Of a stretch of 64,000 bases of DNA, positions 8,619 through 31,659 are shown piece by piece. A program made the position numbers and the translations under genes. The notes below the pieces were generated by a model that was not told where the DNA came from, made no database searches, and saw nothing but the letters and a program-made list of their open reading frames with translations. Position 1 is the first letter of the stretch, and every line of letters starts with the position of its first letter. This DNA comes from a virus, in the IMG/VR virus record IMGVR_UViG_3300021963_000027, positions 32,001-96,000 of that record; one strand, given 5' to 3'.

Positions 8619-8753
8619 ATGAAATACATATATCGAATCTGGAACTTCTTCTCTCCCCCTGCCACTCCCACCTATGGTTGGAAAATCCTTGAACAACGGT
8701 CTTGGCTTGAAAAACAAGTGCAAGAAGAATTACTGAAACGCCGCGAATACTAA
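8619..8753 (+). CDS. Small hypothetical protein
   Basis: Motif upstream; 44 aa. Confidence 0.5.
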   Translation: MKYIYRIWNFFSPPATPTYGWKILEQRSWLEKQVQEELLKRREY

Positions 8754-9644: not shown

Positions 9645-9739
9645 AAGGGTGTACCAGTACGCACTTCTAATGCGTGGACGTTTAAATATACTGTAATTGG
9701 ATATGTCCTATGTAGGTTCGAATCCTATCATCCTTGCCA
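9645..9739 (+). ncRNA. Atypical tRNA-like gene (TCT anticodon loop, no D-arm, 36-nt variable region, encoded CCA)
   Basis: Acceptor AAGGGTG/CATCCTT-G-CCA; T-arm GTAGG-TTCGAAT-CCTAT; stem-loop ACGCA-CTTCTAA-TGCGT; only 7 nt where the D-arm should be. Confidence 0.6.
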
Positions 9740-10655
9740 CTTTTCTAATGAAATAACCTCTTGGTGGGTAATCTATAATACCATATGATTTACACCACTT
9801 TCTAACAGCATTATCTGATATATTATATTTCTTTCCTATTTTTGTGAATGGTAATTCCCATAGTAAATTCTCCAATTCTTCTTTACTAGGTTTTATTCGA
9901 TGTGAATATTGTTTGATCGCAGAACATCGTTTACACCTATAAGACGTTTTGGATATATCAACACCGCAATCTAAACACTTTTTAACCACTTTGTTTTTTG
10001 GAACATAATTGAAGTAATCAAATTCAACTTTAACATTCGCATTTGATAACTTATCTATAAAATCACTCCACTTATCTAAATTAAAACATGCTGAATAATG
10101 AATCTCATATACATCCCATCCACTAAATTCTAACAAATCATGTCTTTCCTGATAGTAAGCTTTCAATGTTCCATCTCTTTCATAATGTTGATTACCATTG
10201 ATTTCTAAAGCTATCATCTTATCGGGTAATGCTATATCAATTGAAAAAGCTCTCCCATTAATCTCTGGTTGATATTCTTCTATAAATGGTATATTCAATT
10301 GAGATAGAAATTCTTTCACTTTCTCACAAGGTTTTGATTTGAACTTGTCTTTATTTCTCCATGGATGTTTATCGGGATTATCTTTCAACCATTGCTTTCT
10401 CTTCTCTGATAGATTCCTTTTTGTTTCCTCTGTATGTTTTTTTCTTATGTTGATATTTTCATTGACGATGAATAATTTTTGTTCTCTCGCATTTTTAAGT
10501 GCTGCATATGGTAATTTATATTCCTTCCTTAATTTAGACATTGTAACGCCTCTATCGTGTAACTCTTGAATATGATTCCAGTCGTATCTATCTTCTAATT
10601 TACCCCATCGCAACTCATTCATGATTTTTGCTCTATCTTTATCAATCGAACTCAT
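9708..10655 (-). CDS. Putative free-standing homing endonuclease (PD-(D/E)xK, Vsr/DUF559-like, with NUMOD3-like, Zn-finger and HTH parts)
   Basis: FIEEY...SIDIALPDKMIALEINGNQHY core; KKHTEETKRNLSEKRK; CLDCG/CKRC; TAAATA-N5-ATG supports a start at 10655. Confidence 0.75.
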   Translation of the reverse strand: MSSIDKDRAKIMNELRWGKLEDRYDWNHIQELHDRGVTMSKLRKEYKLPYAALKNAREQKLFIVNENINIRKKHTEETKRNLSEKRKQWLKDNPDKHPWRNKDKFKSKPCEKVKEFLSQLNIPFIEEYQPEINGRAFSIDIALPDKMIALEINGNQHYERDGTLKAYYQERHDLLEFSGWDVYEIHYSACFNLDKWSDFIDKLSNANVKVEFDYFNYVPKNKVVKKCLDCGVDISKTSYRCKRCSAIKQYSHRIKPSKEELENLLWELPFTKIGKKYNISDNAVRKWCKSYGIIDYPPRGYFIRKVARMIGFEPT

Positions 10656-10748
10656 ATTATTATTTATCTCCAATGTTAATATTTTTGCTCTATCCAATAA
10701 ATAAAGATATTGACTAATTAAAAAACTAGAATACACTTTTCATACAAT

Positions 10749-10820
10749 GCGCTTGTAGCTAATTGGTCTAGCGATCTGCTCATAACGGATGGCAAGCAGG
10801 TTCGATTCCTGTCGGGCGCA
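10749..10820 (+). tRNA. tRNA with CAT anticodon (elongator Met or Ile2)
   Basis: GCGCTTG/CGGGCGC acceptor, ATCTG-CTCATAA-CGGAT, GCAGG-TTCGATT-CCTGT; no encoded CCA. Confidence 0.9.
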
Positions 10821-10854
10821 TCAACTTTTTAAAAAACTAGAATACAATCAACAC

Positions 10855-15823: not shown

Positions 15824-16003
15824 ATGAAACAATATCCCACTCACGAAGAAATCTATGAGCAAATCAGAAAGCTTGTCCTTGGCAATGTCAATCACGCATC
15901 CATGCACAATCGCGAATCATTGGATGATTTGATTGCTGATCTGGAGCAATATCGTGATACTCTTCCAAGTGTCGATGAATACATGAAGGTAAACAAACTC
16001 TGA
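15824..16003 (+). CDS. Small hypothetical protein
   Basis: Motif upstream and downstream. Confidence 0.65.
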   Translation: MKQYPTHEEIYEQIRKLVLGNVNHASMHNRESLDDLIADLEQYRDTLPSVDEYMKVNKL

Positions 16004-16030
16004 ATTAAAAAACTAGAATACAATTACATC

Positions 16031-16189
16031 ATGCAATCCATTTACATTATCGCAGCTTTCTTCGCTGGTTATCTTTTGCCAGAATTTATTAAGATGCTCG
16101 CACCTCGCAATTACACTGTTCCATTTATGATGAACATTATGTGCGGTTTCATCGCCTCTGCAATTCTCCACTACATCCTTACTCACTAA
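16031..16189 (+). CDS. Small membrane protein
   Basis: TACAAT-tacatc-ATG; hydrophobic. Confidence 0.6.
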   Translation: MQSIYIIAAFFAGYLLPEFIKMLAPRNYTVPFMMNIMCGFIASAILHYILTH

Positions 16190-16229
16190 TATCGAACTCA
16201 GAATTAAAAAACTAGATTAGAATTGAGCC

Positions 16230-16460
16230 ATGACAAACAACATCGTAGTAATCAAAATCCACAATGCAAGAGTATCATCTGTTTACAGTGTAGATACCAT
16301 AGAAAATGCCAAAGCACTGGTGAGTGATCTATTCTTTAGCCAATTCCATCGCTCCCTCAATGAAGAGGAAATTGATGATCTGGAAGTATTCATGGAATTG
16401 TATAATGACGAAGACCATGACAATCAATTCACATTCTCCATCTCATTCGTTGACAATTAA
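16230..16460 (+). CDS. Hypothetical protein, paralogue of 20175..20402
   Basis: Shared VIKxHN..VSSVYS.DT.E.AK.LV.DLF..QF.R.LN...YNDEDHDN.FTFSI.FV. Confidence 0.8.
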   Translation: MTNNIVVIKIHNARVSSVYSVDTIENAKALVSDLFFSQFHRSLNEEEIDDLEVFMELYNDEDHDNQFTFSISFVDN

Positions 16461-16484
16461 AAAACTAGAGTAACATTGAGCCAT

Positions 16485-16694
16485 ATGAAAAAACAATATC
16501 TCATAATCCAATTGGAAACCAAAGAGAGTCAAGTTCCTGATGGTTATCACATGACTACGAGAACAGAGTATTTTGGCGTTACTAATGGTTATCCTATCAC
16601 TTTCGATACACTGGAAGAAGCAGAAAAAGAATTGGCACTGCGGATTGGTAAATGGTCTAAATACACGATCATCCCCCTTTACACTCAAGAATAA
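16485..16694 (+). CDS. Hypothetical protein
   Basis: ATG16485 after the motif. Confidence 0.7.
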   Translation: MKKQYLIIQLETKESQVPDGYHMTTRTEYFGVTNGYPITFDTLEEAEKELALRIGKWSKYTIIPLYTQE

Positions 16695-16717
16695 AAAAAC
16701 TAGATTAAAATTAGGAC

Positions 16718-16912
16718 ATGGAAAGTATTAAACGATACAATTGGACAATCCGCAACACTGTTACTGATAAGATAGTTGGGTATAATTGTCGGTTCTGCGC
16801 TTGTGACGAAAATCATGTTCGTAGTAGTCCATCGGTTCAAATTTGGGCAAATGGTGATGAAATCGAAGTGATTGCAGAATCATTCAGTGACTTCGATGAA
16901 TTAGTGGGATAA
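16718..16912 (+). CDS. Hypothetical protein
   Basis: TAAAAT-taggac-ATG. Confidence 0.7.
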   Translation: MESIKRYNWTIRNTVTDKIVGYNCRFCACDENHVRSSPSVQIWANGDEIEVIAESFSDFDELVG

Positions 16913-16934
16913 AAAACTAGATTAGAATTGGGAC

Positions 16935-17117
16935 ATGGAAACAACCAAAGAAAAGATGGAGAAAGCTTACGAGAGCTTGAAAAACATTCAAGAAATCCTA
17001 AGCACTGTAGTTGCCTCTGAAATTGATCAGACTTTCGACTTCTATCGCATGACAAATAACGTTTTCATTGCAAAAATGCACATGGAACATATTCTCCAAC
17101 ACCCAATTAAAAACTAG
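16935..17117 (+). CDS. Hypothetical protein
   Basis: TAGAAT-tgggac-ATG; ends PIKN*. Confidence 0.7.
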   Translation: METTKEKMEKAYESLKNIQEILSTVVASEIDQTFDFYRMTNNVFIAKMHMEHILQHPIKN

Positions 17118-17131
17118 AACATACTTTCATT

Positions 17132-17206
17132 CTACGGAGAAATAGGGTTCAAGTCCCTTAGTCTAGCAATCGCTAGTCATAGCATACTGGTCATGCGCCG
17201 TTTTTC
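17132..17206 (+). ncRNA. Circularly permuted tRNA-like gene (3' half precedes 5' half, opened at the anticodon loop)
   Basis: TACGG-AGAAA-TAGGG-TTCAAGT-CCCTT-AGTCTAG-C-aatc-G-CTAGTCA-TA-GCAT-ACTGGTC-ATGC-G-CCGTT; canonical arm lengths in permuted order; occupies its own motif-bounded cassette. Confidence 0.7.
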
Positions 17207-17232
17207 TTTAAAAACTAGATTAGAATTAGGAC

Positions 17233-17619
17233 ATGCAAAAGATCAGCACAACACAATTCGGTGGTATCAAAGTCACCATGTTTCTCTCCAACACCAAGCA
17301 ACCAACTTGGTCAAACGGTAATCATGATCATTATCGAGTGAAGATTGAACATGAGGGAAAATCCCACACTTTCGATTTTTGGGGTAGCATTGCCAATAAA
17401 GAAAATAATCAATTGGAGAATGTAAAAAATGCTCTGAATTGCTTTGCCAGTGATTGCGATCTGGGAGAGGGTGAATTCAAAGACTTCATCTGGAAAACAG
17501 GTGGATTCGAAGATTCAAAGAATTTGAAAATCTTCAAAGCTTGTCAGAAATCCCATAAAGCAATGAAACGCTTGAACATTCCCAACGATGTTTTCCTTGG
17601 ATGGTTGGACGGTGAATAA
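17233..17619 (+). CDS. Hypothetical phage protein
   Basis: TAGAAT-taggac-ATG. Confidence 0.8.
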   Translation: MQKISTTQFGGIKVTMFLSNTKQPTWSNGNHDHYRVKIEHEGKSHTFDFWGSIANKENNQLENVKNALNCFASDCDLGEGEFKDFIWKTGGFEDSKNLKIFKACQKSHKAMKRLNIPNDVFLGWLDGE

Positions 17620-17641
17620 AAAACTAGATTAGAATTGGGAC

Positions 17642-17923
17642 ATGACAACAATCCATCTAATCAACCTTTGTAGAGAATCAGATTTTCAAAAGAAATACGG
17701 TTCGCAAGTCTATTACGATATTTCAAAGGCTAAAAAGGAATCAAATTGTTTCGATGATGTTATTCGTTCCCTACAACAAGAACACGATGATTTTGTTGGG
17801 TTCTCAGGAGAAGAACACACTAAACAACGCAAGCAAGACATTCAAAACGCAATTCAATTTTTGAACGATTACAAAGAAAATGTCAATCTCGCCAACATGA
17901 CAGTTCAATTTGTAGAATATTAA
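17642..17923 (+). CDS. Hypothetical protein
   Basis: TAGAAT-tgggac-ATG. Confidence 0.75.
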   Translation: MTTIHLINLCRESDFQKKYGSQVYYDISKAKKESNCFDDVIRSLQQEHDDFVGFSGEEHTKQRKQDIQNAIQFLNDYKENVNLANMTVQFVEY

Positions 17924-17945
17924 AAAACTAGATTAGAATTAGGAC

Positions 17946-18212
17946 ATGCGAACATACATTCAATATAAAGACGGAAAACAAAAAGAAGTCAAGAATCTGG
18001 GTTGGTTAGCTCGTAATATCACCCGTGTCGAAGGTATCACAATCAGCGATAGAAACGATGGTGCGAAATGCGGATGCCAATTCGTGGCAACTCTATCGGG
18101 AGGGGATTACTACCACACTGCATTCAATTCTTACGATGTTTGTAAAGATTGGATTGCAAGCCGTAGAGGACTGAAAAACGTTCGTGTCATTGATCTTGTC
18201 GATCTCATTTAA
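17946..18212 (+). CDS. Hypothetical protein
   Basis: TAGAAT-taggac-ATG. Confidence 0.75.
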   Translation: MRTYIQYKDGKQKEVKNLGWLARNITRVEGITISDRNDGAKCGCQFVATLSGGDYYHTAFNSYDVCKDWIASRRGLKNVRVIDLVDLI

Positions 18213-18234
18213 AAAACTAGAATAGAATTAGAAC

Positions 18235-18447
18235 ATGACAGAGACTATTATCATAAATCATTTTACTGGTTATCGTAAGTTGATCCTTACAAAAGGTTTA
18301 CCCAAGATTGGAACTCTAAGAAAACACCTGCGAGCAAGTAAAGCCCAAGGATGCCAAAGCGTAACCCATATTTTCACGGAACAAGGTGTAATTGATGTCA
18401 CACGATTCGGGGAAGTTCTAATCAATGGAAGACAATTAAAAAACTAG
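18235..18447 (+). CDS. Hypothetical protein
   Basis: Motif upstream; ends QLKN*. Confidence 0.7.
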   Translation: MTETIIINHFTGYRKLILTKGLPKIGTLRKHLRASKAQGCQSVTHIFTEQGVIDVTRFGEVLINGRQLKN

Positions 18448-18461
18448 AATACAATTACACC

Positions 18462-18755
18462 ATGCCTATTATTGAACCAAATTTAAGCAAAGAAGTCAAA
18501 GCATACATTGCTAAAGAATGTCACCGCATCTTGAAAGCAGTGGAAGAGGGTCGTGCAATCAAATACGTGGGACTGTGCTCCAATTCCAAGATGGATGAAA
18601 AATTACTAATCAGCCTTAAAGATGTTTTCCATAAATCCTACCCTTTCAATAGTAGTGGTGGGGAATATGGAGCGGAAGCTATGTCACAATCAATCTTTAA
18701 AAATAAAAAGCGCATGGCATTTCTTCGTCGATGGGCAAAGAAACATAAAAACTAG
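18462..18755 (+). CDS. Hypothetical protein
   Basis: Motif upstream; ends KHKN*. Confidence 0.75.
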   Translation: MPIIEPNLSKEVKAYIAKECHRILKAVEEGRAIKYVGLCSNSKMDEKLLISLKDVFHKSYPFNSSGGEYGAEAMSQSIFKNKKRMAFLRRWAKKHKN

Positions 18756-20066: not shown

Positions 20067-20140
20067 GTTGTCGGTGGCGAAGTGGTAACGCGAGGCTGAA
20101 TTAACAGCAAGAAACGTGAGTTCGATTCTCACCCGACGAC
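20067..20140 (+). ncRNA. tRNA-like gene with aberrant anticodon loop (AATTAA) and a G-1:C73-type extra pair
   Basis: G-TTGTCGG/CCGACGA-C acceptor; D-arm GCG-AAGTGGTAA-CGC; T-arm GTGAG-TTCGATT-CTCAC; GCTG-AATTAA-CAGC; starts 6 nt after TAATAT of the motif. Confidence 0.7.
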
Positions 20141-20174
20141 ACACTCTTTAAAAACTAACCTAAAATAATACCAC

Positions 20175-24068: not shown

Positions 24069-24305
24069 ATGAATACTACCACTGCTACCACCGCCACCGC
24101 CAAGAACTTCATCGTTGCCTTCCACGACTGGCAAGGCAATCGCCATACAGTTCAAGTCAAAGCTTCCGATAAAACGTCCGCATACGATGCGGCGTGGCAA
24201 TGGATTGAAGAGAATCGCGGCGACCAACTGGAAATTGAATTTGCGGGTGTTAAAGAGATTGTCTATCTCAAAGACATCATCGCAGAAGCACTGGCTGCAA
24301 ATTAA
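24069..24305 (+). CDS. Hypothetical protein
   Basis: Motif upstream and downstream. Confidence 0.75.
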   Translation: MNTTTATTATAKNFIVAFHDWQGNRHTVQVKASDKTSAYDAAWQWIEENRGDQLEIEFAGVKEIVYLKDIIAEALAAN

Positions 24306-24327
24306 AAAACTAGAGTAAAATAGCTCT

Positions 24328-24420
24328 GTCAACCCCTTCCAACTATCGCGAAGGGTCAACCTGAACCATCAACTACCCCGTCTCTCCCGACCACAGGGAG
24401 GGGCGGGGCAACCAATCTGC
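24328..24420 (+). ncRNA. Candidate small non-coding RNA cassette with two hairpins
   Basis: No ATG after TAAAAT(24316-24321)+N6; hairpins CCCTTC/GAAGGG and CCCCGTCTCTCCC/GGGAGGGGCGGGG; ends at the next motif. Confidence 0.45.
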
Positions 24421-24451
24421 TTTTAAAAAACTAGAGTAGACTGCTACTACC

Positions 24452-30055: not shown

Positions 30056-30128
30056 TCCCAAGTAGCTCAGTTGGTAGAGCGCGTGACTGTTAATCACGTT
30101 GTCGTAGGTTCGAACCCTACCTTGGGAG
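30056..30128 (+). tRNA. tRNA-Asn (GTT)
   Basis: TCCCAAG/CTTGGGA; CGTGA-CTGTTAA-TCACG. Confidence 0.95.
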
Positions 30129-30133
30129 CAGAA

Positions 30134-30209
30134 GGGTGTGTAGCTCAGTTGGTAGAGCAAGAAGCTTTTAACTTCGTGGTCATAGGTTCAAATCCTGTCA
30201 CACCCACCA
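30134..30209 (+). tRNA. tRNA-Lys (TTT)
   Basis: GGGTGTG/CACACCC-A-CCA; loop CTTTTAA. Confidence 0.93.
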
Positions 30210-31111: not shown

Positions 31112-31169
31112 AATATAATACTTACACTTTTATCCACTTTTTACAAATATATTTATCCACATTTTTAAT

Positions 31170-31243
31170 TGGGCGTTAGTGTAATGGTAGCACCGCAGAT
31201 TTTGATTCTGTTAGTAGAGGTTCAAGTCCTCTACGCCCTACCA
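31170..31243 (+). tRNA. tRNA-Gln (TTG)
   Basis: GCAGA-TTTTGAT-TCTGT; AGAGG-TTCAAGT-CCTCT; ends ACCA. Confidence 0.92.
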
Positions 31244-31273
31244 CAATAACTTCAATTTCTCAAGTCAATATAT

Positions 31274-31284
31274 TAAATAATATT
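31274..31284 (+). promoter_or_regulatory. T4-like late promoter TAAATA 5 nt before ATG (example; same pattern before at least 15 late genes)
   Basis: TAAATA-atatt-ATG31285; also before 32149, 39636, 56799, 57104 (+) and 10655, 27247, 37635, 41003, 46743, 47271, 49845, 50326, 51000, 55589, 56770 (-). Confidence 0.8.
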
Positions 31285-31659
31285 ATGATTACATTTTCAA
31301 AATTTTTCGAATTGTTTTTAGAAAATTACAATGAAGTTCGGATATACAATAGTGTGGTGCGTCTTCCCATGGATAAACCTTATGGCTTTTGGATGGATAA
31401 GCATGGTAATTTCGCAGTTGTTAAAGGTGGAATGGGAGCGCATGAAAAAATTGGTAATTTGATTTTGGATCAACTTGGTATAGATTCAGGAGGAAGTGTG
31501 TATGAAACATTATTTGAAAATGGTTGGGTTCGTGTCATGTTAGACAGGGGTAAAACATATTATGAGATTCAACATGGAAGAAGATTAACTCCTATTCAAA
31601 GACGTAATTTATCTTTTATTAACGAATTCTACGAATTAAAAGGAGTTGAAGAAGGTTAA
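31285..31659 (+). CDS. Hypothetical late protein
   Basis: MITFSKFFELFLE N-terminus; late promoter. Confidence 0.8.
   Translation: MITFSKFFELFLENYNEVRIYNSVVRLPMDKPYGFWMDKHGNFAVVKGGMGAHEKIGNLILDQLGIDSGGSVYETLFENGWVRVMLDRGKTYYEIQHGRRLTPIQRRNLSFINEFYELKGVEEG

Follow-up and report, generated by a model that had tools for sequence, protein, structure and literature searches.

A circularly permuted tRNA body lacking the anticodon loop in a promoter cassette of a distant T4-like phage

Here, we analyze a 64,000-nucleotide (nt) window of phage DNA, bases 32001-96000 of the 184-kb IMG/VR phage record IMGVR_UViG_3300021963_000027 (89% complete), and a short element within it, at 17134-17201 in window coordinates, that holds the parts of a transfer RNA (tRNA) in permuted order. 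The major capsid protein of the record shares ~33% identity with gp23 of T4-like cyanophages, and we therefore regard the record as a distant T4-like phage. Approximately 57 kb is split into one-gene cassettes by a promoter repeat, TTAAAAAACTAGA-N-TAnnnT, present in 92 copies on the + strand of the whole record; the family consensus is the motif, one free base, and the hexamer TAnnnT. An ATG lies exactly 6 nt past the hexamer in 55 of these 92 promoters and 9 nt past it in 18, a spacing that implies that early messages are mostly leaderless and that bears out the “N6 rule” of an earlier, sequence-only reading of this DNA. The repeats were noted for window positions 468 to 24956 as well as for the whole record, and cassette content varies among strains that share identical neighbor genes. 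Ordinary tRNAs also sit in promoter cassettes, at 10748 and 20067.

The permuted element and its cassette

The 68-nt core runs from the 3′ strand of the anticodon stem through the variable loop, the T arm, a capped acceptor helix, U8-A9, and the D arm to the 5′ strand of the anticodon stem (Table 1), in the order and at the positions first read from the sequence for 17132 to 17206. Alignment to a normal tRNA-Met of relative G001 shows a closing stem of 4 base pairs (bp) and that the entire 7-nt anticodon loop (positions 32 to 38) is missing. T17133 and T17202, previously counted as a stem mismatch, are by the same homology former loop positions 38 and 32, and T17133 is a G in relatives. The resulting RNA would keep the tRNA elbow and all four helices and would have neither an anticodon loop nor a free CCA end. 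The permuted cloverleaf is calculated at −17.0 kcal/mol, compared with a minimum free energy (MFE) of −17.3, so the tRNA-like fold is predicted to be competitive even without tertiary contacts; for the native RNA, the MFE z-score of −1.1 does not stand out, as is the case for many tRNAs.

Table 1. Cassette features and parts of the permuted element, in window coordinates
Feature	Coordinates	Strand	Remarks
60-amino-acid (aa) ORFan, candidate partner	16935..17117	+	Co-occurs with the element
Phage promoter motif AAAAACTAGA heading the cassette	17109..17118	+	Position weight matrix (PWM) score 10th lowest of 92, inside the family range
−10-like hexamers CATACT (17120-25, standard spacing) and TACTTT (17122-27)	17120..17127	+	Family consensus is motif-N-TAnnnT
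Closing stem, 5′ strand ACGG (tRNA positions 39-42)	17134..17137	+	Pairs A17134-T17201, C17135-G17200, G17136-C17199, G17137-C17198; homologous to ACGGC of the G001 tRNA-Met
Variable loop AGAAA (positions 44-48)	17138..17142	+	Same as the variable loop of the G001 tRNA-Met at 9784-9856
T arm TAGGG-TTCAAGT-CCCTT	17143..17159	+	17144-47 with 17155-58, four Watson-Crick pairs; one T/T opposition; canonical T loop TTCAAGT
Acceptor hairpin: 3′ strand AGTCTAGC, cap AATC (17168-71), 5′ strand GCTAGTCA	17160..17179	+	7-bp stem as drawn by ARAGORN, 6 Watson-Crick: G17172-C17167, C17173-G17166, T17174-A17165, A17175-T17164, G17176-C17163, C17178-G17161
U8-A9, D arm GCAT-ACTGGTC-ATGC, G26	17180..17197	+	D stem, 17182-85 paired to 17193-96; loop, ACTGGTC; 14/16 positions of the 16-nt D arm AGCATACTGGTCATGC shared with the G001 tRNA-Met
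Closing stem, 3′ strand CCGT (positions 28-31)	17198..17201	+	Pairs with 17134-37; ends in the last invariant base before the variable tail
T-rich tail entering the next promoter motif	17202..17209	+	TTTTTCTTT in the window, TTTTCTTTT in L229, TTTTCTTT in L242

In native order, neither ARAGORN nor Rfam at its gathering threshold made a call at the element, and a permissive Rfam scan of 17090-17240 gave no tRNA (RF00005) match. We then placed the 5′ part (from 17172) ahead of the 3′ part and scored the reordered and doubled sequence with ARAGORN. A tRNA was called at every junction that gives a loop of 6 to 8 nt, strict spacer settings included, versus 0 calls in 20,000 dinucleotide shuffles, and the permuted order proposed from the sequence thus withstood comparison with shuffled controls. 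Among random genome windows, matches fell only at genuine tRNAs and at the element. An exhaustive scan, for which each 72- to 83-nt window of this genome and 11 related records was doubled (714 kb, 8.57 million windows), returned 39 junction-spanning calls from the element and, elsewhere outside real tRNAs, four junk singletons; the element is the only robust permuted match in this set. Because ARAGORN also accepts chimeras of adjacent tRNAs, strand complementarity was tested separately. The two acceptor strands form Watson-Crick pairs at six of seven positions, a level matched by 0.57% of non-self strand pairs compared with 88% of self pairs (789 tRNAs), which indicates that both halves come from one tRNA. 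Misassembly is ruled out by the identical sequence in independent assemblies (see below). The element thus has the layout of a permuted tRNA gene (3′ half, linker, 5′ half, and a cloverleaf upon reordering), and this architecture is real and far beyond chance. Two marks of a canonical tRNA gene, detection in native order and a seven-base anticodon loop, are both absent.

Distribution, ancestry, and neighboring genes

Look-ups by neighboring proteins located the element elsewhere. Six more assemblies that belong to the same strain type carry it unchanged (JGI 3300021961; ENA ERZ27296343/44/89; Logan SRR7130817/20), and it is also present in two further lineages, L229 and L242/L243 (three Logan contigs), where it is flanked by different genes. 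A covariance model (CM R1) found nine loci in three lineages and two different gene neighborhoods; what we describe is a mobile, promoter-bearing cassette. The element is absent from the syntenic site in the two closest IMG/VR relatives, and further neighbor-based look-ups (L248-L255, L304, and L305) found no copy. A blastn search of the region against INPHARED phages gave no match, and the halves alone gave generic T-arm matches only. When IMG/VR and JGI metagenomes were scanned by pattern for homologues and for other cassettes combining a promoter with an early T arm, the hits were tRNA-Ser anticodon loops and chance matches, with no homologue among them.

The protein cassettes that the lineages share differ by 12.5% (L229 versus the window), 8.8% (L242 versus the window), and 8.6% (L229 versus L242). 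In the 68-nt core there are 0 differences across lineages, for which the probability is 1e-4 to 2e-3 per comparison. The flanks within the cassette vary: there is a 2-nt indel in the promoter spacer, T17133 is replaced by G, the L242 motif has a C-to-A change, and the T-rich tail differs. Very recent wholesale transfer of the cassette is therefore unlikely. Given that the core is identical while shared genes differ by 9 to 12% and adjoining bases vary, the RNA body appears to be under purifying selection, with the core as the constrained part.

The same comparison bears on where transcription begins. In L229 and L242, CACTTT plus six bases is spaced from the core just as TACTTT is in the window; the distance of this −10-like hexamer to the core is constant, and that to the upstream motif is not. 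Since (C/T)ACTTT plus six bases keeps its distance to the core, we place +1 at A17134 rather than at 17132, where the N6 rule had been taken to put it: the rule holds, and its application at this cassette shifts. Transcription would thus start at or within 2 nt of A17134, flush with the closing stem. At the other end, a consensus scan of 16000-18500 called no canonical terminator at the element, which was thus rejected as an intrinsic terminator (a G+C-rich hairpin with a T run right after it), and the cassettes have no terminators.

The likely source of the element is a tRNA gene of this phage group. Relative G001 (IMGVR_UViG_3300009419_000021) carries in a cassette, at 9784-9856, a normal tRNA-Met(CAU) with anticodon stem GCCGT/ACGGC and variable loop AGAAA. 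The bottom half of the element matches it with a score of 21, versus a mean of 4.9 (standard deviation, 2.4; z = 6.8) over 857 distinct tRNAs. Phage tRNA-Thr and tRNA-Gly genes can have the same D arm, which by itself is therefore not Met specific; the assignment rests on the stem and the promoter-leader. Met-cassette leaders in G000, G001, and G002 read AAAAACTAGAATACACTTT(T/A)CATACAAT, and the promoter-leader of the element, AAAAACTAGAACATACTTTCATTC (ending in ACTTTCATTC), is homologous to them. Compared with the Met homologue, the element has lost A26 as well as C43, so that a single purine is kept at the junction; the T stem has two double, compensatory changes (C-G to A-T and A-T to G-C); and the acceptor helix has changed on both strands with pairing kept. 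From these likenesses, we infer that the element descends from a cassette of the tRNA-Met(CAU) type within this phage group. In the simplest case, a tandem duplication would have been followed by two deletions, each at a short repeat, that removed the outer halves. Candidate repeats are TCAT in the leader and the loop (TTTCATAC versus CTCATAA) and the CGT that ends both the anticodon-stem strand and the acceptor strand, and the linker begins AAT, like the end of the Met leader. By this route, duplication and deletion in a hyperrecombining cassette array would have turned a tRNA gene into a new noncoding RNA.

We also considered the upstream TTCAT as the remnant of a CAT anticodon and dropped the idea as unproven, as the same TTT(T/A)CATAC occurs in normal Met-cassette leaders. 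Separately, the syntenic tRNA-Met cassettes of the window (10748-10822) and G001 (9784-9856) have acceptor and T arms in common and unrelated D and anticodon arms, a case of mosaic tRNA evolution by exchange of internal segments; the permuted element carries the G001-type bottom half.

Next to the element lies the 60-aa ORFan of Table 1. Both occur in nine contigs, neither occurs in 15, and two contigs are uninformative; the ORFan adjoins the element in the window and lies 1 to 1.7 kb away in L229 and L242. It has no Pfam or PHROG match and is predicted to be a three-helix protein (pLDDT 82), the fold of which has no significant PDB match by Foldseek; a profile search added only two more tiny homologues, on contigs of ~1 kb. 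Among genes for RNA processing, the phage encodes a 459-aa RNA ligase (phrog_968) at about G000:C1:23282-24661 (L226:826-2205), with an N-terminal PHA02142-type OB domain and a PF09414 nucleotidyltransferase domain. No kinase/phosphatase partner of this ligase was detected, and RtcB and an end-healing kinase of the AAA_33 type were searched for in the phage and not found. In the Rnl1 family search, the controls gave no response.

Known permuted RNAs and possible roles of the element

Circularly permuted tRNA genes of red and green algae and of Thermofilum were reportedly described by Soma et al. 2007 and Chan et al. 2011. The accompanying statement of the sequence-only reading, that none are known in phages, has to be qualified: a permuted tRNA is reported in prasinovirus BpV1 (PMC3673656), and YrlA RNAs, which occur in bacteria and phages and are modified by tRNA enzymes, have the same swapped connectivity (PMC4201824). 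The algal, Thermofilum, and BpV1 genes share with the element the order of 3′ half, short linker, and 5′ half and a break in the anticodon region. Unlike the element, their precursors keep the loop and a bulge-helix-bulge and are circularized by splicing endonuclease and ligase to give decoding tRNAs. The element itself has lost the loop and is flanked by variable bases, and its host, presumably a bacterium, would lack the algal-type maturation pathway. The flanks (TTTCATTCT upstream and T-rich sequence downstream) cannot pair and differ between lineages. With neither a loop nor a bulge-helix-bulge motif, the element was rejected as a permuted tRNA of the algal type.

YrlA (Y RNA-like A; RF02553), from the Ro60/Rsr particles of bacteria and phages (Chen et al. 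2014, PMC4201824), has a tRNA-like domain with the same connectivity as the element. It has a closing stem that replaces the anticodon arm, then a variable region, T arm, capped acceptor, and D arm, with the bases for tertiary contacts kept, and the element has the T arm, capped acceptor stem-loop, and D arm in the same order. RNase P cleaves the capped 7-bp acceptor stem of Mycobacterium smegmatis YrlA, and CCA is then added (PMC4201824). In contrast to YrlA, the element is ~70 nt rather than ~110 nt long, is derived from a tRNA-Met type, has its own phage promoter, and lacks the long Ro60-binding stem (its closing stem has 4 bp and its flanks are unpaired). No TROVE (PF05731) gene was found in the record, which is 89% complete, and control genomes respond to that search. 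The RF02553 model (gathering threshold, 69 bits) gave no match at E values up to 10 over 17090-17240. Lacking such a match, a long terminal stem, and a TROVE gene, the element was rejected as a member of the YrlA/Y RNA family. The same model gives 26 bits at the tRNA-Asn/tRNA-Lys junction of the window (30083-30186), where two tRNAs in tandem, separated by 4 nt, look like the permuted layout; such tandem tRNAs are a source of false YrlA-like matches.

Two further systems offer partial parallels. Two-piece (circularly permuted) genes for transfer-messenger RNA (tmRNA) were reportedly found in alphaproteobacteria and cyanobacteria by Keiler et al. 2000. They too are bacterial permuted genes of a tRNA-like domain, with acceptor strands linked in the precursor and processed apart; the element differs in having no tag reading frame and no pseudoknots and in being far shorter, and ARAGORN found no tmRNA in the genome or its relatives. 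An engineered permuted “nicked tRNA,” a tRNA-Leu with ACCA replaced by a tetraloop, binds RtcR (PMC10159003). Like the element, it has a tetraloop-capped acceptor and a transcript with both ends in the anticodon arm, and it imitates a tRNA that an anticodon nuclease has cut. It differs in being man-made, in keeping the loop bases, and in binding best with a 5′-OH and a 2′,3′-cyclic phosphate, whereas the phage RNA would have no loop and would carry a 5′ triphosphate and a 3′-OH.

The unchanged core in diverged relatives suggests a working tRNA look-alike rather than a decoding tRNA, and we lean toward the view that the cassette encodes a functional, stand-alone mimic of the tRNA body, a noncoding RNA of ~70 nt that is unable to decode. 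The transcript would run from A17134 through the variable loop, T arm, tetraloop-capped acceptor, and D arm to the other strand of the anticodon stem. Left unjoined, it may occupy or divert a protein that recognizes tRNA shape, such as a host tRNA-directed defense, a damage-sensing factor, or a processing or repair enzyme, possibly acting together with the 60-aa protein. As a suboption, RNase P might cut in the cap and CCA be added, as in M. smegmatis YrlA. Of the two fates offered by the sequence-only reading, a ligated and reprocessed tRNA or a preopened mimic or decoy, the second gains from the invariant body and the element's own promoter, and the first loses from the missing loop bases, the variability of the would-be loop, and the failure to find RtcB or the kinase. 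Anticodon nucleases, which had been suggested as a target, are unlikely because the loop that such enzymes cut is absent.

Several points weigh against a selected, working RNA. Run on 12 related IMG/VR records and fragments, CM R1 recovered only the element's own copy. Because the core does not vary, there is no covariation, and selection is read only from invariance in a narrow clade. Homopolymer slippage weakens the use of flank variation to argue against recent transfer, and the local flanks of L229 and L242 differ by only ~3%, which makes that comparison weak by itself. The cassette is accessory, being missing from strains with an identical 128-aa neighbor (L231, L232, L235, and L237). Three oppositions within helices are noncanonical (T17177/T17162, A17179/A17160, and T17143/T17159), the promoter is in the lowest ninth of its family by PWM score, and no terminator was called at the element. 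The co-occurrence with the ORFan represents about two independent lineages and is a lead only.

A more specific version of the mimic reading is that the phage makes a broken-tRNA look-alike, with a sealed acceptor and no anticodon loop and possibly with the 60-aa protein, to block or mislead a host system that senses or attacks tRNA; we offer this tentatively and consider it rather unlikely. Cleavage of tRNA is a common antiphage weapon, which phages counter with extra tRNAs and repair enzymes. A tRNA body that is conserved, driven by a promoter, and devoid of an anticodon would be a third answer, an RNA decoy or adaptor, and, if it did block a host tRNA-sensing system, an RNA-based counterdefense of an undescribed kind. 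It would also be the smallest natural case of permuted tRNA mimicry, which has so far been known from Ro60-bound Y RNAs and would here do without Ro60. The element is short, the ends of its core are defined, and a candidate partner is present, which makes these proposals directly testable.

It is possible, although we doubt it, that the element is a neutral recombination relic: a tandem-duplicated tRNA-Met-type gene that lost its outer halves by microhomology deletions and now hitchhikes, functionless, behind a promoter repeat. The plausible microhomologies and the AAT at the start of the linker fit such a history, as do the accessory, narrow distribution, the three nonpairs, and a promoter of below-median strength. 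However, 68 neutral nt at 9 to 12% divergence should show ~6 to 8 differences, and none are seen although the immediate flanks vary. Nor would a relic be expected to be kept with its own promoter in two neighborhoods or to have both breakpoints exactly at stem-loop boundaries, and tRNA fragments are not generally scattered through the 714 kb of this phage group.

Less probable still is a cis-acting RNA or DNA element, either a tRNA-shaped 3′ structure that protects or punctuates the upstream message (as an RNase P or RNase E site) or a weak terminator or insulator. Readthrough of cassettes without terminators would indeed put the structure 3′ of the preceding messenger RNA, and a T-rich run directly follows the closing stem in all lineages. 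Yet both the upstream and the downstream genes differ between the two contexts, the element retains a promoter of its own, with the start placed at the stem, no site resembling a terminator was called, and ~90 other cassettes do without such a structure.

We consider it highly improbable that this is a true permuted tRNA gene, whose transcript would become a decoding tRNA after ligation of its ends (perhaps by the RNA ligase of the phage), opening of the cap through RNase P and 3′ trimming, and addition of CCA: the anticodon loop is absent, the would-be loop bases differ from lineage to lineage (T or G at 17133; tail TTTTTCTTT versus TTTTCTTTT), any 7-nt loop made from adjoining bases has a pyrimidine at position 37, the flanks cannot form a leader-trailer helix of the bulge-helix-bulge type, and the primary transcript would have a 5′ triphosphate in a phage where neither RtcB nor an AAA_33-type kinase was found. 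We know of no such maturation pathway in bacteria. The variable would-be loop and the missing RtcB and kinase in particular disfavor rejoining, even though all body elements are present, ARAGORN accepts the reordered sequence, the phage encodes a ligase with an N-terminal OB domain, and RNase P opens the capped 7-bp acceptor stem of M. smegmatis YrlA (PMC4201824).

Other tRNA-like features

Three candidates met during the searches were set aside. L162 is an intron-bearing, archaeal-type tRNA-Gly unrelated to the element. A noncoding-looking cassette in L305, after a distant 51-aa homologue, is likelier to be a 35-aa open reading frame ending LKN*, with no Rfam match and no fold signal. The third, also unrelated to the permuted element, lies at L012:3709-3800 (IMGVR_UViG_3300028534_000019), in an unrelated 101-kb phage contig; there, AAAAACTAGAACATATC is followed by a T arm and a short acceptor-like helix ending in CCA, and the whole resembles a tRNA minihelix that lacks the D and anticodon arms.

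Further unusual tRNA-like genes lie in the record. At 9645-9736 of the window, a gene with the Arg anticodon loop CTTCTAA (UCU) ends in GCCA and has a D arm cut to 4 nt and a 33-nt insertion in the variable region; it scores 31 bits with the Rfam tRNA model, was missed by ARAGORN, and is conserved in G001 (position 8744), and a normal tRNA-Arg(TCT) takes its place in G002. The tRNA at 20067-20142, which has its own cassette and begins at the predicted transcription start, scores 36.7 bits with Rfam and is given a 6-nt anticodon loop, AATTAA, by ARAGORN (“tRNA-???”). Just before the window start, at about 31130-31290 of G000:C1, is a tRNA-like gene of ~120 nt with a large internal insertion, the acceptor GAAGCAA/TTGCTTC, and a perfect T arm, GTTGG-TTCGAAT-CCAAC; G003 and G011 conserve this gene, beside tRNA-Val(AAC), and a similar long form lies near position 85209 of G011. 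Finally, the cassette at 24305-24426 has a standard promoter, no start codon within reach, and G+C-rich sequence with inverted repeats (CAACCCCTTC ... GAAGGGTCAACC), and it may encode another small RNA.
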